DNA of 64,000 bases from a candidate division WOR-3 bacterium UBA3073 (GCA_002366725.1 DFBT01000095.1:4910-68909), one strand, 5' to 3'; positions 8,600 to 64,000 are shown, counted from the first letter of the stretch. Notes: generated by a model from the sequence alone, not told the origin. A program made the numbers and translations.

Positions 8600-9916
8600 T
8601 TACAGGATATACCTTGCAATGTCCACGTTCTTAACGATGTCTTTCAATCTCTCTCTCACATCATTTTCTTCAATGTGTACCTTTTTTATGCCTCTCTTTG
8701 GAACTTTATATAACCAATCCTCCATCAGTGCGAACATTATTGTGTGTAACCTCCTTGCGCCTATATCATCGGTGGTCTCGTTCACTTTTGCGGCGTATTC
8801 TGCGATCGCATCTATTGCCATTTCGTCAAACGACATATCGACCTTCTCGGTCTTAAAAAGTGCAATGTATTGTTTTATCAGGGCGTTTTCTGGTTCTGTA
8901 AGAATTCTTTTGAAATCTTCCTTTTTCAGTCGGGCGAGTTCAACCCTTATGGGAAATCTTCCCTGAAGTTCGGGGATTAGATCGGATGGCTTCGACGAGG
9001 TGAATGCACCCGCCGCTATGAACAATATGTGGTCTGTCCTTACCATTCCGTACTTCGTTGTAACATTGCATCCCTCAACAATTGGCAGAAGGTCCCTTTG
9101 AACACCCGCTCTGGAGACATCGGGGCCACCTCTGCCGTCTGCGCCCACGATTTTATCGAGCTCATCTATGAATATTATACCCGAGTTTTCCATATTCTCC
9201 TTTGCCTCGCTTATCACCTCTTCCATATCGACAAGTTTCTGCGCCTCTTCCTGTGCGAGGATTTCTTTTGCCTCGTTGACCTTGATTCTCTTCGTCTTGT
9301 GCTTTTTGGGGGCGATGGACGACATCATATCCTGAATATCGGTATTGATCTCCTCCATACCCATGGGACCGAATATCTCTATAAGGGGAAATGATTGGAC
9401 ATATACGGGAACATTAACAAACCTATCCTTGAGTGCGCCCTTACGCAATAATTTTCGCAGCTTATCACGCGATTCCTTCTGTTTTTCCTTATTCTCCCCC
9501 GGTAGAAGCAAGTCCAGCAACCTTTCTTCTCCCCGTTCTCTCGCTCGTTCCGCCACCTCGATCTGCCTTCGAGCCTTCACCATATTCACGGATATATTCA
9601 TGAGGTCTCTCACCATGGCTTCCACATCCCTTCCAACATATCCCACCTCGGTATATTTTGACGCCTCGACCTTCATAAACGGTGCGTTGACGAGCCTCGC
9701 AATTCTTCTCGCTATCTCCGTTTTTCCAACACCCGTCGGACCAATGAGTATCAGGTTGTTTGGGAGTATCTCTTCTCTCATGAGGCCCTTCACCCTCTGT
9801 CGCCTCCACCTGTTGCGGATTGCTATTGCAATAGCACGTTTTGCTTCGCTCTGACCGATGATATGTCGGTCGAGTTCCTTTACTATCTCCTTTGGTTTTA
9901 GTTCTCTTTTGTTCAC
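8600..9916 (-). CDS. hslU: ATP-dependent protease ATPase subunit HslU
   Basis: '[29 protein letters not shown]', Walker A '[15 protein letters not shown]', 438 aa, adjacent to hslV. Confidence 0.95.
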
Positions 9917-51516: not shown

Positions 51517-52233
51517 ATGGCGGAGAAGATAAGTATTGTAACGGGGGGTGCGAGGGGGATAGGGAAGACGATAGCTGCCTCGTTGAAGGAGCAAGGAAGC
51601 GGGGTATTTATATGGGATGTGAGCGAGGAGGGAGAGAAGACCGCGGATGAACTCGGAGTAAAATTTGTGAAAGTGGATATATCCAGTTACGAAGATGTGA
51701 ATAAAAATGTGAAGGCTTTATTGGAGGATGTTGGTAAAATCGATGTATTGATCAACAATGCGGGCATAACGAGGGATAATTTACTTTTGAGAATGAGTGA
51801 GGAAGAGTTTGACTCCGTGATACGGGTCAATCTCAAGGGGACATTCAACACCACACATGCGGTGCTTCGCTCCATGATGAAAAATAGATGGGGGAGGATA
51901 GTGAATATTTCCTCCGTCATCGGGATTATAGGCAACAGGGGGCAGGCAAACTATGCCGCATCGAAGTCGGGAATTATAGGATTTACAAAATCGGTGGCAA
52001 AAGAGGTCGCCACTCGGGGAATTACCGTAAACGCAATTGCGCCCGGATTTATAGAAACCGAAATGACGGAGAGGCTTTCGGATGAGGTGAAGACGGCATA
52101 TCTGAAATCCATCCCGATGAGGAGGTCTGGCAGCCCGGACGATGTTGCAAATCTCGTCCTCTTCCTCGTTTCTGACTCCGCCTCGTATATAACCGGTCAG
52201 GTTATACATGTGGACGGAGGAATGCTAATGTGA
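51517..52233 (+). CDS. fabG: 3-oxoacyl-[acyl-carrier-protein] reductase (SDR)
   Basis: 'IVTGGARGIGKTIA', 'NAG', catalytic 'YAASKSGIIGFTKSVAKE', 238 aa. Confidence 0.9.
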   Translation: MAEKISIVTGGARGIGKTIAASLKEQGSGVFIWDVSEEGEKTADELGVKFVKVDISSYEDVNKNVKALLEDVGKIDVLINNAGITRDNLLLRMSEEEFDSVIRVNLKGTFNTTHAVLRSMMKNRWGRIVNISSVIGIIGNRGQANYAASKSGIIGFTKSVAKEVATRGITVNAIAPGFIETEMTERLSDEVKTAYLKSIPMRRSGSPDDVANLVLFLVSDSASYITGQVIHVDGGMLM

Positions 52234-52306
52234 GCCGGCGTAGCTCAGATGGAAGAGCACCTGACTGTGGATCAGGGTGTCATGGGTTCAAGTCCCGTCG
52301 CCGGTA
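52234..52306 (+). tRNA. tRNA-His (anticodon GTG)
   Basis: Hand-folded cloverleaf: acceptor GCCGGCG/CGCCGGT (G1-U72), D-arm GCTC-AGATGGAA-GAGC, anticodon stem CCTGA/TCAGG with loop CTGTGGA, T-arm ATGGG-TTCAAGT-CCCGT, discriminator A; no encoded G-1 or CCA; starts right after fabG stop. Confidence 0.7.
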
Positions 52307-52316
52307 TATACCCCAA

Positions 52317-52356
52317 TATCCCTCGGATGCAGACTGCATTCCGAGGGATATTTTAT
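52317..52356 (+). terminator. Rho-independent terminator hairpin after tRNA-His
   Basis: 'ATCCCTCGGAtgcagactgcaTTCCGAGGGAT' stem followed by ATTTTATTC. Confidence 0.6.
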
Positions 52357-52376
52357 TCAAAATTTAGCCCGTCTAC

Positions 52377-52396
52377 CCTGCCTGACGGCAGGCAGG
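52377..52396. repeat. Palindrome variant CCTGCCTGACGGCAGGCAGG
   Basis: Downstream of tRNA-His and its terminator. Confidence 0.85.
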
Positions 52397-52725
52397 CGAT
52401 ATGTAGAAAAGTATGTTTAAATCTGCCCTGCGTGTCTCTTGTGGGGTATGCAAGTTGAGAAATGGGTATGGAGTGCATTACCTTGTCCATATCCATCTTA
52501 AGATCCGTATGGATACGGATCTCATACGAGTCCGCGACCTATGGACGGACTCTGTGAGGTAATGCAAAATAGCGGGGCAAATGTAACGCTAGGCTTCAGC
52601 CTTACCAATGAAGCGATACCGTTTGGAATGAAATGTAGTTTGGTTGGGCGCTGTCTTCGGTGAGCCTTCGGCGAGCTCAGCCGAGCCGCTCAGCCGAACC
52701 GTTTACAGTGCCAATAATTTTTTTC

Positions 52726-52754
52726 TTGACAATGCGCACTTTTTGATGTATAAT
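52726..52754 (+). promoter_or_regulatory. Consensus sigma70 promoter of mazEF (TTGACA-17-TATAAT)
   Basis: Perfect -35/-10 hexamers with 17-nt spacer, 20 nt upstream of AGGAGGTGA RBS. Confidence 0.6.
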
Positions 52755-52774
52755 TTATACAGGAGGTGATAAGC

Positions 52775-52996
52775 ATGAAGAGACTTAATATTACTTTGCC
52801 AGAAGATCTGGCTCAGGAGTTAGAAGCAATCTCCAATAAGAGTCGCTTTATTGCTGAGGCGGTGAAAGAGAGGTTGGAAAGAATCAGGAGAGAAAAACTG
52901 GACAAACTTTTAGTCGAGGGGTATAAAGCAACTTGTAGAGAAGACAGGGAAGTTGATAAAGAGTGGGAGGAGATTACACTTGAATCATGGAAGTGA
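52775..52996 (+). CDS. mazE: MazE/CopG-type ribbon-helix-helix antitoxin
   Basis: 'KRLNITLPEDLAQELE...SRFIAEAVKERLER' RHH; ATG 8 nt after AGGAGG; 10-nt overlap with toxin gene. Confidence 0.7.
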   Translation: MKRLNITLPEDLAQELEAISNKSRFIAEAVKERLERIRREKLDKLLVEGYKATCREDREVDKEWEEITLESWK

Positions 52997-53343
52997 ACTT
53001 TCCAAAAAGAGGAGAAATTTGGCTTGTCTCTTTAGAGCCTGTAGTTGGTACTGAGATAGGTAAAGCAAAACCGGCTATAGTGATCTCAAATGATAGAAAT
53101 AACCAATTTGCAGCTACAGTAACTGTAATTCCCATTACTTCAAAAACAGAGAGGATACATCCGTTTGAAGTCTTCCTCCCTGCAGAAAAGACGGGATTAG
53201 CCAGGGATTCTAAGGCAAAGTGCAATCAGATTCGGACGATTGATAAAAAGAGATTGGTTAAATCGCTGGGAGCATTGTCTTTAAATAAAGTGCGAGAGAC
53301 AGAAAAAGCTCTTCTCATTCATCTTGGTATAAAAGTTAGTTAA
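52987..53343 (+). CDS. mazF: MazF/PemK-family endoribonuclease toxin
   Basis: 'RGEIWLVSLEPVVGTEIGKAKPAIVISND...TVIPITS' PemK/MazF signature; 118 aa. Confidence 0.8.
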   Translation: MEVNFPKRGEIWLVSLEPVVGTEIGKAKPAIVISNDRNNQFAATVTVIPITSKTERIHPFEVFLPAEKTGLARDSKAKCNQIRTIDKKRLVKSLGALSLNKVRETEKALLIHLGIKVS

Positions 53344-53391
53344 GGGGATTACGGGGTCGTTAAAACAAAAATTACATTTTTATTTCTTTTC

Positions 53392-53490
53392 TTGACTTTT
53401 TATGAAATTGACTGTATAATATAGAAAGAGGATAGTTGGCAGCAAGAAGCTGAAATTTAAAATTAAAGACCTGACCCCATTTACCAACTG
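53392..53490 (+). promoter_or_regulatory. Promoter (TTGACT-17-TATAAT) plus ~65-nt conserved leader, copy 1 (upstream of AlbA_2 gene)
   Basis: Leader 'agaaagaggatagttggcagcaagaagctgaaatttaaaattaaagacctgacccca' about 90% identical to 55271-55335. Confidence 0.55.
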
Positions 53491-53531
53491 GAGGAGGGGA
53501 ACGCCAGATTAACGAAGGAGATTTTTGGTTA

Positions 53532-55022
53532 ATGGCACTACCGTTAAATATCGATAAGTTGATCAACGGTTCAGTTATGGAGTGGGAACGCCTTGAATTC
53601 AAGAAGGGATGGAATCCTGAAGATGTTATTCACGCCATTTGTGCGTTTGCCAACGATATCCATAACTGGGGCGGTGGGTATGTCATTCTGGGAGTTGAGG
53701 AAAGGAATGGCAGACCTGTTTTACCACCAAGTGGGTTAGAGCCCAATCAACTGGATAAAATTCAAAATGAACTCATTGGTCTTTTTCATAAACTGGACCC
53801 CTACTATTTGCCGGTGGTTCAACCAGAGATTTATCAGGATAAACATATTTTGATCCTCTGGGTATATGGCGGCGATGAGCGTCCCTATAAAGCACCGATG
53901 TCACTTGGTGATAGAAGCTCTAAAGCAATTTACATCAGACGAGGTTCTCAAACATGCAAAGCCAATCAAACAGAAGAACGACAACTGCGGGAAATCGCTG
54001 TCAGAATTCCTTTTGATGATAGAATAAATCATCACGCAGATGTTAAAGATTTAAATCTTGCCAATATTCAGGCGTTTCTGAAAGAGGTAGAGAGCGATTT
54101 ATATGAAGAGTCAACACAAATTCCTTTTACCGAATTGTGTGAACAAATGAAGATTGTCCAAGGGCCAACAGAATATTTGAGACCGGTTAATATTGGCTTG
54201 CTGATGTTCAGCGATCATCCTGAAGAATACTTTGTTGGGGCAGGAATCGATGTAGTGATCTACCAAGATGAAATCGGCGACCATTTTACAGAAAAAACCT
54301 TCACAGGACCGATTCACCAGCAATTGCGCGATGCATTGCATTATGTAAAGACAACCGTCATTAGAGAGGAAGTTCAAAAGGTTCCTGGACAGGCAGAAGT
54401 GTTGCGATTTTACAATTATCCCTACGAAGCCGTAGAAGAAGCACTTGCTAATGCCGTATACCACCGCGGTTATGAACATCAGAATCGAATTGAAGTAAAT
54501 GTTCGTCTGGATTGCATAGAAATTTTGAGTTATCCCGGTCCCCTCCCCCCGGTGGACGCCAAAGCACTGAAAAAGAGACGAATCGTAGCACGGAATTACC
54601 GAAATCGGCGTATCGGCGATTTTTTGAAGGAACTGGACCTGACGGAAGGCAGGGCTACTGGCTTCCCAAAAATCTATAAGGCAATGGGAGTCAACCGCTC
54701 ACCGCCGCCGGAGTTTACTACCGACTCGGACAGAAACTATTTCTTGACCGTTTTGAAGAAACATCCGTTGTCCCAAGTAGTGTCCCAAGAGCTGTCCCAA
54801 GTTGAAGAAGGATTAAGTGAACAAGCTATAAAGATTCTTGGGTTCTGTAGGATAGCAAGGAAAAGACAGGAGATACTGGTCTATATTGGTTTGTCAAATC
54901 ATCCTGATAACTACAAACGCCATATTAAACCTCTTATAGAAAGTGGTAAATTGGAGCTGACGATACCTGACAAACCAAAACATCGAAATCAGAAGTATCG
55001 AACACGAAAGAGGAACATATAA
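53532..55022 (+). CDS. AlbA_2 (Schlafen-like divergent AAA_4) + HATPase_c_4 + C-terminal wHTH putative nucleic-acid-binding regulator
   Basis: N-term '[41 protein letters not shown]' AlbA_2 signature; central ATPase-like region; C-terminal HTH; 496 aa. Confidence 0.7.
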
Positions 55023-55026
55023 GAAA

Positions 55027-55070
55027 ACGTATAAGAATGCGTATAAGAATGCGTATAAGAAAGCGATATA
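55027..55070. repeat. 12-bp tandem (GCGTATAAGAAT)x~3.5
   Basis: Immediately after AlbA_2 gene stop. Confidence 0.8.
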
Positions 55071-55240
55071 AAAAATGAACCTAAAATATGGACACTATCC
55101 ACGATACAACACCTATAAGGATTCTGGCATTGAGTGGCTGGGGGAGATTCCGGCGCATTAGGAGATAGAAAGATTGAAAAATTTATTAGTCCAAACAAAA
55201 GAAATAGTGTCAGTTCTGCGTAACGCCCGTTGACTTTTCC

Positions 55241-55335
55241 CTTGATATCTTATGAAATAAGTTGTATAATACAGAAAGAGGGTGCTTGGCTGTAAGAAGC
55301 TGAAATTTAAAATTAAAGACCCGACCCCAATTATC
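55241..55335 (+). promoter_or_regulatory. Promoter-leader element, copy 2 (TTGATA-18-TATAAT + conserved leader)
   Basis: Near-identical to 53392-53490; followed by a start-less ferredoxin-like reading frame. Confidence 0.5.
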
Positions 55336-55351
55336 CTACACTGAAAAATGC

Positions 55352-55497
55352 AAGGGTTGTACAAGATGCGAGAGGGTCTGTCCAACTGGAGCAATAAGTG
55401 GAGAACCCAAGAAGGTCTATAAAATTGACCTTGAAAAATGCACAAAATGCGGATTCTGTAAAGATTCCTGCAAGTTTGATGCGATAAAGGTGGAATA
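55352..55497 (+). pseudogene. 2x[4Fe-4S] ferredoxin-like coding remnant lacking an in-frame start codon
   Basis: Translation 'KCKGCTRCERVCPTGAISGEPKKVYKIDLEKCTKCGFCKDSCKFDAIKVE*' has two CxxCxxCxxxC(P) clusters; the frame opens only after a TAA inside the conserved leader and holds no ATG/GTG/TTG. Confidence 0.5.
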
Positions 55498-55563
55498 AAA
55501 AATTCAAATGACAAAAAATACGCTGTTTTGCCAACTATGTCAACTACTTGATGTTAACAAGGT

Positions 55564-55779
55564 TTGCTAAGGGACGAAGTCAACATATTATGGTTACTTT
55601 TGTTGACTTTGTTGACTTGTTCGAGTATACAAATTGAGACTGTAGAGGATATAAAGAAACAAGACTGGGAGGTTCGTTTTGGTGCAGATAAGGTAAATGG
55701 GCAAATAATGATTATCTATATAGATATTTTTGGCAATGAGAAGAGGGAAGTAAAAAGACTAAAGGATTTTAAAAAGTAG
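55564..55779 (+). CDS. Small hypothetical protein (TTG start; hydrophobic N-terminal segment)
   Basis: 71-aa ORF ending 5 nt before the next gene; 'ILWLLLLTLLTCSS' signal/lipobox-like segment; surrounded by GTTGAC/GTCAAC repeats. Confidence 0.3.
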   Translation: MLRDEVNILWLLLLTLLTCSSIQIETVEDIKKQDWEVRFGADKVNGQIMIIYIDIFGNEKREVKRLKDFKK

Positions 55780-55783
55780 AGAT

Positions 55784-56698
55784 ATGAATAGAAAAAAAAT
55801 TTACAATTTAGAATTCCCAAGTTATTGTGAAAAACTTAATATTGGAGGACATGTTTTTAAGAGGGTTAAAGATTATGAAAAGCAAGTAAAAAGTCTTCAA
55901 CATTTGACCACTGTTCTCTCTGAATACTCAATTAGCGCTAATACCGGATCGCATAATATTACTGCCTTTGTAGAGCTCCCTATTAAAGAGAAGAAAGCGG
56001 TTTTCCCTTGGGATAAAAATAATGCTACAGCATTGAATGACATTTTAGTGCTTTTATCAATTTTTACAGGGCGAGATGTGTTTTTGGATGAACCTTTGGA
56101 CAAGCCATCTGCGATCATTGCAGACCCGCGGAAATACCAATGGGGCGGATCTTTAAGGTGCTCGATACCTTACAAGGAGACAAAGAAAGATCAAGATTTA
56201 GGGTACAACATAGGATTTGAAGAAGGATTAAATAAGATTTATTCACTAATAAGAACTGACCAATGGTTAAAGAAGTATCAAGATGGATACTTTTTGCTTT
56301 TACTTAAGCATGCAGAAAAAAGACAGATTTTAGAGACTGCCTTTGTTTTGCATTGGACAATCTTGGAACATCTTTTCACCTTGCACAACAGAAAGTGGCT
56401 TTCAGATGAACAGATACGGAAGTTACCTTCAGCGGAAAAAATATCTTTTCTTCTTGTTGAATACGCTCTAAGCTCAGAGATTACCAAACCCAATAAAAAA
56501 AGGATTTCAGAGTTAGCAGGAGTCAGAAATAGACTGGTACATTTTGGCAAATTCCTTGATGCCAGGGCTGAGAAAAATGCAGAGCTAGTTATAAGACTTA
56601 CAGAATTTATTGTTGCTAAAATATTAGGCCTTTTGCCTTCAAATGTATTTAATACGATTGAGAGGTTGGAACAGTTTTTCAATAGCAGTTCTAAATAG
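55784..56698 (+). CDS. Hypothetical protein with C-terminal HEPN-like Rx4H motif (candidate Abi/RNase-type defense protein)
   Basis: 304 aa; 'ELAGVRNRLVHFGKF' matches the HEPN Rx4-6H signature; AT-rich, in island. Confidence 0.45.
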   Translation: MNRKKIYNLEFPSYCEKLNIGGHVFKRVKDYEKQVKSLQHLTTVLSEYSISANTGSHNITAFVELPIKEKKAVFPWDKNNATALNDILVLLSIFTGRDVFLDEPLDKPSAIIADPRKYQWGGSLRCSIPYKETKKDQDLGYNIGFEEGLNKIYSLIRTDQWLKKYQDGYFLLLLKHAEKRQILETAFVLHWTILEHLFTLHNRKWLSDEQIRKLPSAEKISFLLVEYALSSEITKPNKKRISELAGVRNRLVHFGKFLDARAEKNAELVIRLTEFIVAKILGLLPSNVFNTIERLEQFFNSSSK

Positions 56699-56795
56699 TC
56701 ATGATCGATAAAAAAGTGTTCAAAAATCGAGATCTTGTCCTTAGGGTTTCTCCAAATATTGACCCTGATAACGGCGGGTATTGGAAGGTATTATA

Positions 56796-59700
56796 ATGAA
56801 TTCAGATTTAACATTTATCACTAACGAAAAAGAGAGAACCCTTCTTGAAAGGTTTAAGGTACTTATCAAGGACGCATCTCTGTTTGATGTTCTGGTTGGA
56901 TACTTTTATACAAGTGGTTTTTATGCATTATACAAATCATTAGAGTCCACAGAAAAAATCAGGATTCTAATAGGGATGGGGACAGGTAAAGAAACTATAA
57001 GACTTATTCAAAAGGCAAAAGGCGAAGAGCAATTAACCCTCCAATTCTCACATGCTGTGGTGAAACAAGAGTTTGGAAACTCTGTTACGGAAGAGATGGA
57101 ACAATCAGAGGATAGCGCTAATGTTGAAGAGGGAGTTTTCAAATTTATTGAATGGCTAAAAAATGGGAAACTAAAAATAAGAGCCTATCCCAGCAGGGAC
57201 ATTCATGCAAAGCTCTATATTATGACCTTCACAGAAGGCGATAGAGATACAGGGAGGGTTATCACTGGTTCAAGTAACTTTACCCGGGCTGGGCTTATAG
57301 ATAATTTGGAGTTTAATGTAGAACTAAAGAACAGATCTGATTATGAATTCGCTCTTGAGAAGTTTAATGAACTCTGGGAGAACTCTGTTGATATATCCGA
57401 CAAATATGTTGAAACCATTAATTCCAGGACCTGGCTGAACAATACAATAACCCCTTACGAGTTGTATCTAAAGTATCTATACGAATATTTGAGAGAGAAA
57501 ATAAATATTGATCAGGAGAAGGTAATTGGTCGTTATCGTCCGCGTGATTTTATGGACCTGGAGTATCAAAGGGAAGCAGTACAAGATACCAAGAGTAAGT
57601 TAAAAGAATACGGCGGTGTATTTCTATCAGATGTAGTGGGTCTGGGAAAGACCTATATTTCCGCCATGCTCGCACAAGAATTGAGCGGGCGCAATCTAAT
57701 CATTTGCCCACCCGTGCTAAAGGAATACTGGCAGGATACTTTTACTGGTTTCAATCTTCAAGCCACTGTAGAATCCTTGGGTAAATTGGATCAACTTGCC
57801 AAAAAAGGCACTGAAGACTATGAGAATATCTTTATTGACGAGGCACATCGTTTTCGCAATGAATCCAACCAGACATACGAGAAATTAAAAGAAATCTGCT
57901 GGGGCAAAAAGATTATTCTGGTATCAGCCACTCCTCAAAATAACACTCCAATAGACCTTCTAAGTCAGATAAAGTTATTCCAGAAGGGGCACAAAAGCAC
58001 CATCCCTGGTTTACAGGACATAGAAAGATATTTTAACTCGCTACAGAAAAAATTAAAGGGTATAGATCGCCAATCTGATTTTGCGAAATATATCTCTATA
58101 ATCAAAGAGAATTCTAAAGCAATTAGAGAAAATGTTCTAAAAGATTTAATGGTTAGAAGAACCAGAGGTGATGTAGAAAAATATTTTTCACAGGACTTGA
58201 AAAATGAGAAACTGAAATTTCCAACAATTAGAGACCCTGAGAAAGTATATTACGAGTTTGACGAAGAAACAGACCGCACCTTTAACAAAACTATAGAAAA
58301 GATAAAAGGATTTCAATATTTTCGCTATACGCCGATATTGTATCTTAAAAATCCCAAGCCAGAAGAAAAAGAGGAATTGGTTGGACAGCGCAACTTAAGA
58401 CGCTTTATGAAAATTCTTTTGGTAAAACGTCTTGAAAGCAGTTTTTTTGCCTTCAAGAAAACCTTAAATAGATTTATCTCTTCATACGAAAGGTTTATTA
58501 AGATGTTTGAAGGTGGGACAGTTTATATAAGCAAAAAGTATACACATAGAATATTTGAACTTCTTAATAACGATGATGAAGATGAAATAATGAGATTGGT
58601 AGAAGAAGAAAAAATAAGGCAGTATAAAATTGATGAATTTAAGGATGGTTATGTTGACAATTTAAGGCGTGATTTAAGGGTTCTTAGAGAGATAGAATCT
58701 CTGTGGAAGAACATAACAGCAGACCCTAAAATTGAGAAATTTAAGGAAATATTGGAAAGCGACAAAATATTAAAAGGAAAAAAGATTATTGTATTCACGG
58801 AATCAAGAGAAACCGCAGAATATCTGGAACAGAATTTGAAGAGTACATATAAAGACGCTGTGATGTCTTATTCCAGTCAATCAAGTGCTCGTATTCAAGA
58901 TAAAGTAATTGAAAACTACGACCCAAAGTGTAAATATCCAAAAGATGATATAAGTCTCTTGATTTCTACTGAGATTCTCTCTGAAGGTGTTAATCTACAC
59001 CGTTCTAATGTGGTTGTGAATTATGACCTTCCCTGGAACCCAACCCGAGTAATACAAAGGGTAGGTCGTATAAATAGAGTGGATACTACATTTAATGATA
59101 TTTATATCTACAATTTTTTCCCAACAAAGCAATCAAATGATGTGATGAAATTAGAAGAAGCTGCTATCGGAAAGCTTCAGTCATTTCACGATATGTTAGG
59201 AGAGGATGCGGCTTATCTGACTGATGGTGAGGAAGTTGGTTCCCACGAGCTATTTAATAGGGTGAATTCTAAAAGGGTTATTGGGGGTGAAGATGAGGAG
59301 TTAGGGGACTCAGAACTTGAGTATTTGATGGAAATCAGGGCTGTTCGCGACAAGAATCCAGATTTATTTGAAAAAATTAAATATTTACCTAAAAAGGCAC
59401 GAAGCGCCAAAAAATATCCAGTAGAAGAAGATGCGGTTTTGACTTTCTTTAGAAAGGGTAGTTTGAGAAAGGTATTCATAACCGACAGTAAGTCAACAAG
59501 GGAATTAGATTTTTTCCTGACAGCCAATATCTTAAAATCAGTACCAGAAGAAAAAAGAGAAAAACCCGGTAAAAAATTCTATGGTTATCTTGATAACAAC
59601 AAAGAAGAATTTAGGCTGGCTACACTTGAAGAAATTATAGAACCCAAACAAAAAGGCGGCAGAAGCAGTGAGGCAAAACTAAAGGGTATAATCAAGGCAA

Positions 59701-59963
59701 TCCAAAAAACAAAGGGTTTTACAGAAGATGATGATAAGTATCTCAAAAAAGTGCTCAATCTTTTAGAAGAAGGGATCCTGCCAAAGCAAACCAGTAAAAC
59801 CATAATGAAAAACATTGGAAAAGAGATGAACCCCTTGAAAATACTTAGCATAATAAGAAAACATACTCCGGATAGCCTTTTTGCAGTTCCAGTAACAGAT
59901 AGAACCAGTCATACTTCTGGGCCGAGAGAGGTAATTCTTTCGGAATATTTAATTGGTGAATAG
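56796..59963 (+). CDS. PLD-family nuclease domain fused to SNF2-family (SF2) helicase
   Basis: N-term 'DIHAKLYIMTF...GRVITGSSNFT' (HxK...GSxN); helicase motifs 'VVGLGKTYIS' (I), 'IFIDEAHRFRN' (II, DEAH), 'LVSATPQNN' (III), 'QRVGRINR' (VI); start at ATG 56796 after GGAAGG. Confidence 0.8.
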   Translation: MNSDLTFITNEKERTLLERFKVLIKDASLFDVLVGYFYTSGFYALYKSLESTEKIRILIGMGTGKETIRLIQKAKGEEQLTLQFSHAVVKQEFGNSVTEEMEQSEDSANVEEGVFKFIEWLKNGKLKIRAYPSRDIHAKLYIMTFTEGDRDTGRVITGSSNFTRAGLIDNLEFNVELKNRSDYEFALEKFNELWENSVDISDKYVETINSRTWLNNTITPYELYLKYLYEYLREKINIDQEKVIGRYRPRDFMDLEYQREAVQDTKSKLKEYGGVFLSDVVGLGKTYISAMLAQELSGRNLIICPPVLKEYWQDTFTGFNLQATVESLGKLDQLAKKGTEDYENIFIDEAHRFRNESNQTYEKLKEICWGKKIILVSATPQNNTPIDLLSQIKLFQKGHKSTIPGLQDIERYFNSLQKKLKGIDRQSDFAKYISIIKENSKAIRENVLKDLMVRRTRGDVEKYFSQDLKNEKLKFPTIRDPEKVYYEFDEETDRTFNKTIEKIKGFQYFRYTPILYLKNPKPEEKEELVGQRNLRRFMKILLVKRLESSFFAFKKTLNRFISSYERFIKMFEGGTVYISKKYTHRIFELLNNDDEDEIMRLVEEEKIRQYKIDEFKDGYVDNLRRDLRVLREIESLWKNITADPKIEKFKEILESDKILKGKKIIVFTESRETAEYLEQNLKSTYKDAVMSYSSQSSARIQDKVIENYDPKCKYPKDDISLLISTEILSEGVNLHRSNVVVNYDLPWNPTRVIQRVGRINRVDTTFNDIYIYNFFPTKQSNDVMKLEEAAIGKLQSFHDMLGEDAAYLTDGEEVGSHELFNRVNSKRVIGGEDEELGDSELEYLMEIRAVRDKNPDLFEKIKYLPKKARSAKKYPVEEDAVLTFFRKGSLRKVFITDSKSTRELDFFLTANILKSVPEEKREKPGKKFYGYLDNNKEEFRLATLEEIIEPKQKGGRSSEAKLKGIIKAIQKTKGFTEDDDKYLKKVLNLLEEGILPKQTSKTIMKNIGKEMNPLKILSIIRKHTPDSLFAVPVTDRTSHTSGPREVILSEYLIGE

Positions 59964-59965
59964 CT

Positions 59966-62900
59966 ATGGATAAACAAGACGCAATAAAAATTATTAGAGA
60001 TACTTTTGAAAGACCTTTTGACAGAAGGTGTTTTACTTATTTTGTAAAGAATCTGCTTAACAATATAGAATCTGAAGACAAACATCCTTATAGCGGCAAA
60101 TACATTCCCGATGCTTATAAACCTTTCATTAGCACACTCAAGCGCATTGGCAAATATAAGGACTCTGACGATAATAAAATAGATATTCTTATTGTTCATC
60201 TTAAAAAACCAATATCACTTGAACGGGCACGGACAATGCAGAGAAATTTCATTGCATGGTATCTCAAAGGCAGTCGTGGAGATATATTAAAAGATGCGGC
60301 TTTGGTCGCGTATGTTTCACCTGATCAGGAGGACTGGCGATTTTCTCTAGTTAAAATGGAATACAAACTTACCCAGACTAAAACTGGCAGGGTAAAGGCA
60401 AAAGAAGAATTAACCCCGGCCCGCAGATATTCTTTCTTAGTAGGAAAAAATGAACCAAATCATACCGCAAAACAACAACTCGTTCCACTCCTGCAGGATG
60501 ACAAAAATAATCCTACCTTGACTCAATTAGAAGATGCGTTCAGTATAGAAAAGGTCACTAAAGAATTCTTTGAAAAGTATCGGAACTTGTTGTTTGGGGA
60601 CAAAGGAATCAAAGAAGTTCTGGATAAAATTGTTAAAAAAGATTTGGCTATTCAAAAAGATTTTAATGACAAAGGCGTTGATACTGTTAATTTCCCCAAG
60701 AAACTTTTAGGTCAGATTATTTTTCTCTATTTTTTGCAAAAGAAAGGTTGGATGGGCGTACCATCAAATAAGTCTTGGGGTGAAGGCGACAAAAGTTTTT
60801 TACGAACTCTGTTTATTAGGAGTAAAAATGAACATAAAAATTTTTTCAATGATTATTTAGAGATTTTGTTTTACAATACATTAAACAATCCTCGTCAGAC
60901 TGAAGTTGACCCCAGTTATTCCAGAGATTTTGATTGCAGAATCCCATTTTTAAATGGTGGTCTTTTTGAACCAATACAGGGTTATGATTGGCAATATACG
61001 GATATTCTTCTGCCTAATGAGTTATTCTCCAACCAAATTAGAACAAAAGAAGGTGATATAGGCACTGGGATTTTAGATGTCTTTGATAGATATAACTTCA
61101 CTGTTAAAGAAGATGAGCCGTTAGAAAAAGAGGTAGCTATTGATCCGGAAATGCTTGGGAAAGTTTTTGAAAATCTTCTAAAGGTTAAGGATAGAAAATC
61201 TAAGGGTTCTTATTATACCCCCCGTGGGATTGTCCACTATATGTGTCAGGAGAGTTTGATAAATTATCTGGACACAGAAATAAATGTTGAACAAAAGCCT
61301 TTAATTAAGGGAAAAGGCATTCAAACAAAACTTTTGGGTGAACAAGCACCTATACAGAAAAGTCTAACTGCTCCCAGATATTTAACTGTAGTCTCTAAAG
61401 AAAATATTGAAAATCTTATTCGCTACGGTGATTTGGCTATTGAACATGACATAGCCAAAGAAGAAGGCACGAAAACCTATAGACACAAATTGCCTGAAAG
61501 TATCCGGCAAAATGTCAAGCTGATTGACGAAAAATTGGCAAATATCAGAATATGCGACCCTGCCATCGGCTCAGGTGCTTTCCCTGTTGGAATGATGACA
61601 GAGATCGTTAGGGCAAGAAATGTCCTCACAACTTACCTACCTGACGAAAGCAAGAAAGACAGAAAGATTTATAATTTCAAACGTCATTGCATACAAAACT
61701 GTCTTTACGGTGTAGATATTGATCCGGGAGCGGTAGAAATAGCCAAACTCCGTCTGTGGTTATCCCTTATTGTTGATGAAGAGGATATAAAACAGATTAA
61801 GCCTTTGCCGAATTTGGATTATAAGATAATCTGCGGTAATTCACTCTTGAGAGTAGAGAAAAGTTTTTTTAATTTGAAGGCATTTACAAAACTTGAAAAA
61901 CTTAAACCATTATTTTTTGAGGAGACTATTTCACGCAAAAAGCAAGGATATAAACAACAAATTGATGAATTGATAAAGGAAATTACAAATAATGATGAGC
62001 ATTTTGATTTTGAGGTTTATTTTTCAGAAGTCTTTCATGAAAAAAAAGGGTTTGATGTAGTGATTGCCAATCCACCGTATATAAGTTTTGGATTGAGAGG
62101 ATCTGACAAAGCTAAAAAAGATTGGGATGCTTATGTTAGAAAGAGCTATCCAAACTCCGCAGAATATAAATTAAGCACTTATGCTATATTTATAGATAAG
62201 GGGATCCAACTACTTAGAGACAAAGGAAACATATGCTATATTACACCTGATAGCTACCTATTAGGACGATATTTTTCAAAATTAAGGAATTACATTTTAA
62301 ATTCAACCTCTATAAAACAAATATTAATGTTTGAAACTGATTTTTGGCGAGAAGGAGTGATTGGTAGACCAACGATTACTCTAATGCAAAAAAATCAAAA
62401 GAAAGGATTATGCGAGATTGAACTATTTAAAAATTTAGAAAATTTTGAAAGAGGTTTTTGCCTAAGAAACTCATATTCGCAAGAATATTTTAATAATAAT
62501 AAATATAAGCGTTTTAAACTACTTTTTAGTAATAGAGCAAAAAGACTTGTAGAAATTGTTGAAGCTGATTCAATATCACTTGGGGATGTAGCAAAAATTA
62601 CCACTGGCGTAAGGTCGAAAATTGGACAGAAGAAAATTATAGCAGATAGACAGGCAGAAAAAAATTGGAAGAAAGGTATAATTTCCAGTGCCCAAGTTTA
62701 TCCATACATAGTCAAATGGAGGGGACATTATCTAAATATTGATAAAAAACTGTTATGGGCAGGTGGATGGGATTCAAATATAGTAGAAAATCCAAAGATA
62801 ATGATTAGACAAACTAGTGATTCATTAATTGCAGGAATTGATATGGAAGGGTTTTATCATCTTAACAATGTGCATTCTTTAAGCATCCTAAAGGAGAACA

Positions 62901-63196
62901 TATCTCTTGAGTATATTTGTGCCGTGTTAAATTCGAAACTAATGAATAAATTTTATCAACTTGTTAGTCTTGAAAGAAGCAGAACAATGGCTCAAACTGA
63001 TATTGATGTATTAGAAACATTACCTATCAAAATGATAGAAATGAAAGCCCAAAAAAAGATTATAGAATTGGTACACCAAATTATTCATAATGGCTTACTA
63101 AATCAAATCTTAGAAGAAATTGAAAATTTGATATGTGAGATATACAAATTGCCAGCAGAAATGAAAAAATATGTCATGGAAGATAATTTATATTAA
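59966..63196 (+). CDS. Large gamma-class N6-adenine DNA methyltransferase (Eco57I/type IIG / BREX PglX / DISARM DrmMI-like) with N-terminal extension and C-terminal TRD-like region
   Basis: Motif X 'GSYYTPRGIVHYM', motif I 'DPAIGSGAFPVGM', motif IV 'VIANPPY'; 1076 aa; 2-nt gap from upstream helicase gene. Confidence 0.8.
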   Translation: MDKQDAIKIIRDTFERPFDRRCFTYFVKNLLNNIESEDKHPYSGKYIPDAYKPFISTLKRIGKYKDSDDNKIDILIVHLKKPISLERARTMQRNFIAWYLKGSRGDILKDAALVAYVSPDQEDWRFSLVKMEYKLTQTKTGRVKAKEELTPARRYSFLVGKNEPNHTAKQQLVPLLQDDKNNPTLTQLEDAFSIEKVTKEFFEKYRNLLFGDKGIKEVLDKIVKKDLAIQKDFNDKGVDTVNFPKKLLGQIIFLYFLQKKGWMGVPSNKSWGEGDKSFLRTLFIRSKNEHKNFFNDYLEILFYNTLNNPRQTEVDPSYSRDFDCRIPFLNGGLFEPIQGYDWQYTDILLPNELFSNQIRTKEGDIGTGILDVFDRYNFTVKEDEPLEKEVAIDPEMLGKVFENLLKVKDRKSKGSYYTPRGIVHYMCQESLINYLDTEINVEQKPLIKGKGIQTKLLGEQAPIQKSLTAPRYLTVVSKENIENLIRYGDLAIEHDIAKEEGTKTYRHKLPESIRQNVKLIDEKLANIRICDPAIGSGAFPVGMMTEIVRARNVLTTYLPDESKKDRKIYNFKRHCIQNCLYGVDIDPGAVEIAKLRLWLSLIVDEEDIKQIKPLPNLDYKIICGNSLLRVEKSFFNLKAFTKLEKLKPLFFEETISRKKQGYKQQIDELIKEITNNDEHFDFEVYFSEVFHEKKGFDVVIANPPYISFGLRGSDKAKKDWDAYVRKSYPNSAEYKLSTYAIFIDKGIQLLRDKGNICYITPDSYLLGRYFSKLRNYILNSTSIKQILMFETDFWREGVIGRPTITLMQKNQKKGLCEIELFKNLENFERGFCLRNSYSQEYFNNNKYKRFKLLFSNRAKRLVEIVEADSISLGDVAKITTGVRSKIGQKKIIADRQAEKNWKKGIISSAQVYPYIVKWRGHYLNIDKKLLWAGGWDSNIVENPKIMIRQTSDSLIAGIDMEGFYHLNNVHSLSILKENISLEYICAVLNSKLMNKFYQLVSLERSRTMAQTDIDVLETLPIKMIEMKAQKKIIELVHQIIHNGLLNQILEEIENLICEIYKLPAEMKKYVMEDNLY

Positions 63197-63213
63197 ATTT
63201 AAAGGGGGAGAAA

Positions 63214-64000
63214 ATGTTTGTAAAAATGGGTTTCAAAAAATGGACAAAGGGGACACAAGCAGGTTTAAGAATATATACTGATTCAATAAATAAACTCTCT
63301 AGTATCCTTGAATTTCCTTCGCGAGACACACAATGGAGGTCGCTTAGAGATTTTTTACGCGCGATAGAACTGTCAGGAGATGGAACAAATGTACCACCTT
63401 ACTCACGAAACTTACAAATTGTAGATATCTCTTTATCAAAAAAACTTTCTGCAACGATGACTATTGCTCAGCATAATCACTCAACACAAGGATACATTAC
63501 TGTTTCAAGTGGAACTTGGTTAGGAATAATAGTCGAAAAATTTATGAATAGAAATTTCTATTGTGAGTATGTTAGCGGAGAGAATATTGATTTATTAATT
63601 TTACCTGATTTTAAACTTGATATTAGAAAACAGAGAAAAAATGAATTAAATATAATAGAAAAGAAAGTATATTCCAAATCTTTACGCAAATCTAATGTAG
63701 CTCCGCTTGAAGCAAATATAATAGGTCTATATTTTGAACTAGAAGAAGTAAAGTATATTTCAGAGAAAGAAAAACTTGCTCCTTTCCATAGATTCCCGAA
63801 TTTAAACAGTAATCTGCCAAAAATTGCTAGGAGAAATATCTCGTGTGATATAGATGTATGCGATAATCAAGGGCACTTTGTTAAGTTCGTTGAAGTTAAA
63901 TCTGTATATGGTCTTCCTGGAAAAGAGTTTAATCTTACAATAAATGAATATAAATCTAGGGAAATATGTCGTAGAAATAAATGGGAATATGAGATCGTAG
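63214..64000 (+). CDS. DUF3883-like PD-(D/E)xK nuclease-domain protein (3' partial at window end)
   Basis: GGGGAG RBS; C-terminal 'DIDVCDNQGHFVKFVEVKSV...FNLTINEYKSREI...WEYEIV' = D...EVK nuclease core plus DUF3883-type tail. Confidence 0.55.
   Translation, partial: MFVKMGFKKWTKGTQAGLRIYTDSINKLSSILEFPSRDTQWRSLRDFLRAIELSGDGTNVPPYSRNLQIVDISLSKKLSATMTIAQHNHSTQGYITVSSGTWLGIIVEKFMNRNFYCEYVSGENIDLLILPDFKLDIRKQRKNELNIIEKKVYSKSLRKSNVAPLEANIIGLYFELEEVKYISEKEKLAPFHRFPNLNSNLPKIARRNISCDIDVCDNQGHFVKFVEVKSVYGLPGKEFNLTINEYKSREICRRNKWEYEIV

Follow-up and report, generated by a model that had tools for sequence, protein, structure and literature searches.

We examined a 64,000 nt stretch of DNA from a candidate division WOR-3 bacterium (the window), concentrating on positions 52234-56795, where a histidine tRNA gene (tRNA-His) stands between conserved core genes and a series of toxin-antitoxin and putative defence genes. 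The source contig, NOZQ01000003.1 (GCA_002245405.1), ends ~1 kb past the window, and downstream sequence was followed to that end at ~64.98 kb. A DNA methylase encoded in the last part of the window matches a protein from candidate division WOR-3 bacterium JGI_Cruoil_03_44_89 at 100% identity. The genome JGI_Cruoil_03_Bacteria_44_89, from the Santa Barbara oil seeps, has been described as a lineage close to TA06 and WOR-3 that may be new at the phylum level, and NOZQ00000000 is among the oil-seep and soil genomes of the DAS Tool paper (PMC6786971). Four related populations were used for comparison, namely L011 (GCA_054772515.1), L014/L015 (GCA_023129165.1), L016 and the metagenome contigs L021-L023. 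RpoD homologues of these relatives are found at 80-89% protein identity, while the next matches are at 50% or less.

Gene content and composition around tRNA-His

The TGA stop codon of fabG ends at 52233 and directly abuts the tRNA, which thus begins on the base next to the stop (Table 1). ARAGORN, proposed as a check in an earlier note on this DNA, calls tRNA-His (gtg) as the sole tRNA of the 64-kb window, and the Rfam score and the assignment of FabG agree with the note's description of a GTG-anticodon tRNA immediately behind fabG. No CCA is encoded at the tRNA 3' end. In all four further populations the tRNA likewise abuts or overlaps the fabG stop, and it is probably co-transcribed with fabG. 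The terminator hairpin that the note placed after the tRNA is also borne out by folding, as none of 200 shuffled sequences folded as well. This hairpin belongs to a spacer that recurs in relatives, and it is located farther from the tRNA in L016 and L023. Taken as a whole, the locus is best explained as a functional, conserved tRNA-His gene.

The exact junction between fabG and the tRNA varies. In L011 (5173-5175), L022 and L023 the fabG stop is a TAG that overlaps the tRNA, its G being tRNA position 1, and cleavage by RNase P would therefore deprive the fabG message of a complete stop codon. In the window, an RNase P-cut fabG message would finish exactly at the TGA.

Gene content switches after the tRNA from core functions to MazEF, AlbA_2, HEPN-like, PLD-SNF2 and methylase genes, in agreement with the earlier note. 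The note had also described the DNA as visibly more AT-rich beyond the tRNA. A discontinuity in GC and codon usage was indeed computed, yet it is two-stepped, with GC of 0.451 at 32001-52233, 0.413 at 52766-55022 and 0.346 at 55023-64000, and the value of 47-50% GC given for the upstream DNA was somewhat high. The larger step is found at ~55.0-55.3 kb, at the second copy of a repeat described below, and not at the tRNA. GC at third codon positions (GC3) is 0.45-0.57 in the upstream core genes versus 0.28-0.43 after the tRNA, and codon adaptation to core genes is 0.74-0.80 upstream versus 0.64-0.70 downstream. A second low-GC block (19-32 kb, GC 0.379) is occupied by glycosyltransferase and other polysaccharide-synthesis genes; because this cluster is low-GC as well, low GC alone is no marker of defence islands here.

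Table 1. Positions of features in the window and of the promoter-bearing repeat in related genomes
Feature	Position	Strand	Basis or remark
fabG (3-oxoacyl-ACP reductase), last conserved core gene	51517..52233	+	TIGR01830 333.6 bits, cutoff 297.75; syntenic in L011, L014, L016, L021
tRNA-His(GUG), G-1-less type	52234..52306	+	ARAGORN tRNA-His (gtg); Rfam RF00005 65.6 bits, gathering score 29
Strong terminator-like hairpin, then T-rich run ATATTTTATT	52317..52350	+	-24.1 kcal/mol, z = -5.0
Non-coding spacer	52315..52640	+	blastn: 92-95% identical to L016 and L023
mazE-like (RHH) and mazF	52766..53343	+	PemK_toxin 3e-31, 108 bits, above cutoff; RHH match weak
Repeat copy 1, TTGACT-17-TATAAT and ~65-nt leader ending GACCCCATTTA	53379..53484	+	Repeat family D1; profile 105.9 bits; precedes AlbA_2 gene
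AlbA_2 (Schlafen-like) / HATPase_c_4 / Fic-like_C winged-helix protein	53532..55022	+	Pfam
Repeat copy 2, 84% identical to copy 1	55227..55333	+	Repeat search, alignment, profile; main GC drop begins here
2x[4Fe-4S] ferredoxin-like reading frame, complete, without start codon	55340..55498	+	Translation; no gene called
71-aa open reading frame, then 304-aa HEPN-like protein	55564..56698	+	HEPN_Swt1 9e-4, below cutoff
PLD (HKD) nuclease-like domain fused to SNF2 helicase, gene 1	56781..59963	+	Pfam; PADLOC 'HKD+Snf2' 1e-42
N6-adenine DNA methyltransferase with TaqI_C specificity domain, type IIG-like, gene 2	59966..63196	+	Eco57I 2e-39, TaqI_C 1.5e-19, PADLOC REase_MTase_IIG 848 bits
Third gene, 298 aa, D...EVK nuclease-like motif	63215..64000, to ~64110 beyond window	+	Translation
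CCTGCCTRCCGGYAGGCAGG palindrome sites	4272, 5453, 31773, 38293, 49717, 51112, 51449, 52377 (52377-52396, in spacer)		
Repeat copies, L011	6138-6230, 7022-7127, 7815-7922		
Repeat copies, L014	15631-15736, 16764-16803, 17347-17453		
Repeat copies, L016	11994-12096		
Repeat copies, L023	2738-2829, 5908-5992, 6456-6541		

Variable modules and a promoter-bearing repeat 3' of the tRNA

Gene order was compared with that of the relatives over 3-7 kb of DNA 3' of the tRNA in the four populations and over the 12.7 kb to the contig end here. The synteny comparison suggested in the earlier note gave a clear outcome: the order S21-MutS2-DnaG-RpoD-(Vut_1)-EIIA-LipB-FabG-tRNA-His is kept in the four further populations, and the content downstream is different in each. 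Similarity between the genomes ends ~10 nt after A73, that is, beyond the tRNA and not inside it. The tRNA of L011 is followed by HicB, MNT/HEPN, a remnant of the AlbA_2 gene and a PAPS-reductase/DUF4007/AAA/BrxC cluster; that of L014 by MNT/HEPN, Fic and a beta-propeller protein; that of L016 by MazEF, Polbeta/HepT and AP_endonuc_2; and that of L023 by MNT, a truncated HEPN gene and two DNA methylases. Each of the five populations thus has a different module set, all modules lying on the tRNA strand, and the whole forms a mosaic of co-oriented, repeat-separated modules that are shared in different combinations among genomes. In more distant relatives (RpoD 45-50% identical, including Stahlbacteria) the fabG-tRNA arrangement is absent.

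Core genes of the window and of the relatives share 69-82% nucleotide identity, whereas the variable pieces that they have in common are 88-92% (MazEF, against the L016 copy), 92-95% (the spacer, which is better conserved than the adjoining MazEF coding sequence) and 95-98% (the stretch after AlbA_2) identical. The AlbA_2 3' remnant of L014 reaches 98% identity, against only 69-75% for core genes of the same genome. Since the shared modules are far closer than the core genes, recent horizontal exchange is required; together with methylase relatives in Atribacteria and Dehalococcoides, these identities lead us to regard the content as horizontally exchanged. These sequence comparisons give good support to the view that the tRNA borders a variable, horizontally acquired defence region.

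The window has eight sites (11 pattern matches, counting overlaps) of a 20-nt palindrome resembling repetitive extragenic palindromic elements, CCTGCCTRCCGGYAGGCAGG, against an expectation of 0.04. None is found between 52.4 and 64 kb, while variants reappear at the contig end (L001 14734, 14873) and the palindrome is also present in the core spacers of the relatives. This gap is consistent with foreign DNA from 52.4 to ~64.7 kb.

A repeat of ~100 nt, present in two copies in the window, recurs in the relatives with two to three full copies plus partial ones per genome. Its consensus is a sigma-70 promoter, TTGAC(T/A)-17-TATAAT, followed by a leader of ~65 nt, and several copies carry a Shine-Dalgarno sequence and a 5-codon mini-ORF (open reading frame; MAVRS-stop). 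Similarity from copy to copy stops within a few bases of GACCCCATT, with unrelated cargo beyond. Among the ~300 kb searched, strong copies were located only in the hotspots after tRNA-His, with profile E-values of 1e-14 to 1e-33. The AlbA_2 gene is full-length only in the window genome; L011, L014 and L023 hold 5'-truncated remnants, cut at three points (window ~54510, 54678 and 55006) and each joined to the same repeat end. The HEPN gene of L023 is cut after 26 codons at a sequence similar to the repeat end, and partial copies keeping only the 3' end of the repeat are found at junctions. The repeat gave no Rfam match and no matches in viral contigs, direct reading of the consensus found no GTTRRRY or RYYYAAC boxes, and the short motif ACCCCAWTWW alone is not enriched (4 found versus 2.1 expected).

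Independent assemblies of the organism (L007, L006, L002, L003 and L001) end at ~52680, 53380 and 64700-64980. The break sites are the low-complexity stretch after the spacer, repeat copy 1 and palindromes near 64.7 kb, a pattern compatible with repeats, or with differences among strains, where modules meet.

The first module after the tRNA is a MazEF toxin-antitoxin pair, in which the mazE-like gene and mazF overlap by 10 nt; a promoter scan found a perfect TTGACA-17-TATAAT promoter ahead of it at 52726-52754. The spacer between the tRNA and MazEF contains a 72-nt hairpin-rich insertion (52486-52557), which the relatives lack and which sits in the loop of a GCATTACC/GGTAATGC stem. The spacer with its insertion could be a small RNA; it had no Rfam match, and an Rfam search of 52.2-55.8 kb returned the tRNA only. 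Between the tRNA and the shared spacer, L023 (~7199-7125, minus strand) and L016 (~9855-9900) contain a short hydrophobic ORF with a ribosome-binding site, encoding MFSSFSVLWWF... and MVHPFSVFWWF..., respectively, which is absent from the window and could be a small toxin or leader peptide. Farther downstream, a 12-nt unit (TATAAGAATGCG-like) is repeated four times in tandem from the AlbA_2 stop codon onward (55018-55065), a stretch that is also present in L023. The ferredoxin-like fragment lies directly 3' of repeat copy 2 and is probably the remnant of a truncated gene. Translation of the 304-aa HEPN-like protein contains an R-N-R-L-V-H (R-x4-H) motif.

The last three genes, which lie in the most AT-rich block, form a unit. 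The same three-gene order is found in L024 (Dehalococcoides mccartyi AP024514.1, 4820-12125), L025 and L026, with third-gene counterparts of 250-300 aa, and the unit is conserved across phyla including Atribacteria and Dehalococcoides. The nearest relatives of the methylase are proteins of Atribacteria (73% identity) and Dehalococcoides mccartyi (61%), and no close homologue occurs in the related lineage; the helicase and the third gene are 54% and 36% identical to Dehalococcoides counterparts in the same positions. The unit scores below cutoff for every named defence system. DISARM was rejected (DrmD 137 bits versus a cutoff of 610, no DrmA/B/C nearby), as were BREX (PglX 94 bits versus 500, no PglZ or BrxC nearby) and Dpd and Zorya, with scores far below cutoff. 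The helicase/methylase system would be a restriction-modification-like defence, in which the methylase would mark host DNA, and unmarked DNA would be attacked by the translocating PLD-SNF2 protein, alone or aided by the small nuclease-like protein.

A tRNA-His without an encoded G-1

In every domain of life, tRNA-His is identified chiefly by its G-1. The earlier note had read a G1-U72 pair, A73 and no encoded G-1 in this tRNA and had called the combination atypical for bacteria, a reading that alignment confirms and extends. In seven of seven sequences of the lineage, A at -1, G1-U72, C2-G71, C3-G70 and A73 are invariant and the acceptor stem, GCCGGCG / CGCCGGU, is identical. The A at -1 is the last base of the fabG stop codon, or the middle base where that stop is TAG, and, as position 73 is also A, no eighth base pair G-1:C73 is possible. 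The canonical bacterial arrangement, an encoded G-1 paired with C73, is present together with a GUG... stem in the comparators L008-L010 (an Anaerolineales genome, a Schekmanbacteria genome and an uncultured bacterium) and is not found in the lineage. Because positions 8-65 are nearly identical to these canonical tRNA-His genes, the difference affects only the end that bears the identity elements. The tRNA folds into a fully canonical cloverleaf, with the high Rfam score given above. The D-loop is 8 nt long, AGAUGGAA or in some relatives AGAUGGUA, and a single base in the T-loop distinguishes the window tRNA (TTCAAGT) from those of the relatives (TTCGAGT). In scans with the tRNA core, the genome collection yielded nothing but three canonical tRNA-His genes of other phyla, and the metagenomes yielded three contigs of the same lineage.

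A type of tRNA-His lacking G-1 has been characterized (PMC3064791). Its hallmarks include A73, a G1-U72 first pair, conservation of the C3 pair and a D-loop of 9 nt that contains U20a. According to the same study, histidine identity in Caulobacter rests on the anticodon together with U72 and A73, and kcat/Km falls 91-fold on the change U72C. Literature reviews to 2023 place the G-1-less state in bacteria only in the alpha-proteobacterial clade and its phages, and no report of a G-1-less tRNA-His in WOR-3 or related lineages was found in the searchable literature. A BLAST search with the tRNA against large Rhizobiaceae, Paracoccus and Azospirillum replicons matched only tRNA-Thr, Ala, Lys and Phe. 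The Rhizobiaceae result weakly disfavours a recent transfer of the tRNA from alpha-proteobacteria.

By analogy with Caulobacter, the lineage most likely charges this tRNA by way of a G-1-independent histidyl-tRNA synthetase (HisRS) that would read U72, A73 and the anticodon, a proposal to which we attach moderate confidence. The broader claim, that the WOR-3-related lineage independently switched to the G-1-independent mode and relies on this as its sole tRNA-His with a co-evolved HisRS, is about evenly balanced. Counting against it, the tRNA lacks the 9-nt, U20a-containing D-loop of the alpha-proteobacterial type. Neither hisS nor a Thg1 gene is among the genes of the window or those listed for the comparison loci.

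In eukaryotes Thg1 adds G-1 after transcription, and A73 is found there too. The tRNA could accordingly be a spare or specialised copy beside a canonical one, or could acquire G-1 post-transcriptionally from a Thg1-like enzyme, an explanation that we hold possible if rather unlikely. Some bacteria encode Thg1-like proteins, some of them accepting A73 substrates, although the bacterial enzymes prefer templated addition opposite C73 (PMC3245924), and U72, a specific determinant of the G-1-independent system, has no role in the Thg1 route. Irregular tRNAs beside toxin-antitoxin genes have been described (PMC5389517); this one, however, combines its canonical cloverleaf and high score with a sequence and a position after fabG that persist in genomes with 18-31% divergence of core genes. 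If G-1-independent charging in this lineage is true, it would represent a second bacterial origin for the loss of a near-universal tRNA feature, the U72/A73 identity switch would be a repeatable evolutionary route, and a possible new HisRS/tRNA pair orthogonal to the standard one would be at hand.

Origin of the variable region and comparison with known systems

We consider it likely that the tRNA provides a fixed anchor at the left side of a chromosomal hotspot, where related genomes gain, lose and exchange toxin-antitoxin and anti-phage modules. Modules would enter or be replaced by recombination, with the invariant fabG/tRNA sequence as left anchor and the repeats as right anchor, the latter serving either as portable homology or as sites for a hypothetical recombinase, and each repeat would supply a promoter for the module behind it. 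Finding the same promoter-bearing repeat before each module suggests a simple way to plug in and express foreign defence genes.

Several observations weigh against this interpretation. The right edge of the hotspot lies beyond assembled DNA, every assembly breaking at ~64.7-65.0 kb among repeats, and an integrase or att repeat may be present beyond ~64.98 kb. MazEF and the spacer have a GC near that of the core and could be older residents. The 3' end of the repeat has two variants, TTTAYC or TTGTGT, so that its boundary is sharp only to ~5 nt, and the repeat forms no hairpin (z about 0; single-stranded DNA folds of both strands between -0.9 and +0.9). A site-specific role of the repeat is something that we infer, since no recombinase gene was seen in the examined hotspots.

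These last points bear equally on a second explanation, an integron-like cassette array in which the repeat would be the site of a dedicated recombinase, encoded elsewhere, that shuffles promoter-carrying cassettes beside the tRNA. The co-oriented modules each following a repeat, the abrupt end of repeat conservation near GACCCCATT with unrelated cargo after it, the three independent truncations of AlbA_2 and one of HEPN at the same end, the junctions that retain only the repeat 3' end and a similar sequence, ACCCCAAT, just 3' of the tRNA would all suit such an array. However, similar patterns could be produced by homologous recombination between repeats combined with deletions, and the array starts at fabG/tRNA-His without IntI or attI. 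An attC-like reading of the repeat was rejected on folding; the R'/R'' boxes are missing from it, and neither the unenriched short motif nor the lack of matches in viral contigs speaks for mobile cassettes of this kind. We therefore regard the array as unlikely. A more speculative proposal, in which an undescribed system captures cassettes at the promoter-bearing repeat beside the tRNA, we hold to be doubtful.

The 3' ends of tRNA genes are common integration sites, and the earlier note had on this ground seen a horizontally acquired island at the tRNA. Its boundary, variable content and exchange hold up, through synteny, identities, methylase homologues and composition, and the locus does have the variable content beside a conserved tRNA and the deviant composition of a tRNA island; insertion by an integrase into the tRNA 3' end is not supported. 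The note had reported no integrase or tRNA-derived repeat within the window. The same is true to the contig end at ~64.98 kb, as no integrase was found among the genes of these 12.7 kb or in the examined hotspot parts of L011, L014, L016 and L023, and no copy of the tRNA 3' end with up to three mismatches was found in the window or to the contig end. For want of both, a classical tRNA-integrating island is not shown. Such an island, formed by a tyrosine integrase that inserted one or more elements into the tRNA-His 3' end, would have its integrase and far att repeat beyond the contig end, which indeed falls only ~1 kb past the window, and the T-loop base difference could reflect replacement of the 3' half. 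Homology nevertheless runs through the whole tRNA and ~10 nt further, and the interior is a mosaic of modules in different combinations, making this origin improbable.

An ancestral region with differential loss, its low GC due to relaxed or different selection on accessory genes, is very improbable and largely refuted by the comparison of modules with core genes: MazEF and the spacer do occur in two lineages with GC close to the core, and the low-GC block at 19-32 kb is an ordinary polysaccharide cluster, but the shared pieces, including non-functional gene remnants, are 88-98% identical against 69-82% for the core, the opposite of what vertical descent would give, and the methylase resembles an Atribacteria protein more than anything in its own lineage.

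The exchange hotspot anchored by the tRNA, which we prefer, is like tRNA-adjacent genomic or defence islands and core-flanked defence hotspots in having a conserved core gene and tRNA on one side and strain-specific toxin-antitoxin, restriction-modification and defence genes on the other, with deviant composition and exchange. It is unlike them in that no integrase or tRNA-derived repeat was found, variable DNA begins ~10 nt past the tRNA, and promoter-bearing repeats lie between modules. The island is therefore ordinary in kind, one more example of accessory defence genes clustered beside a tRNA, and unusual in its modular architecture. With sedentary chromosomal integrons and integrase-less attC clusters, such as the Vibrio VCR arrays, it shares co-oriented cassettes, often toxin-antitoxin, and a homogeneous repeat of ~100 nt with a sharp end. 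Unlike integrons, the repeat has no hairpin, lacks attC core boxes and carries an outward-facing promoter; no IntI-like gene was seen, and some modules are multi-gene systems of ~9 kb.

The three-gene system resembles type ISP and type IIG systems, DISARM class 1 (DrmD/DrmMI) and PADLOC 'HKD+Snf2' in that an SNF2 translocase with a PLD domain adjoins a gamma-class N6-adenine methylase with TaqI_C. Type ISP enzymes fuse these functions in a single polypeptide, whereas here they are distributed among three genes; from DISARM the system differs in the absence of the drmA, drmB and drmC genes. The atypical tRNA-His is the more interesting element than the island. It is like the tRNA of Caulobacter crescentus and related alpha-proteobacteria, compared by published description (PMC3064791), in the lack of G-1, A73, G1-U72, C3-G70, G37 and the GUG anticodon, and unlike that type in its WOR-3-related host, its 8-nt D-loop without U20a and a tRNA body like the canonical tRNA-His of other phyla.

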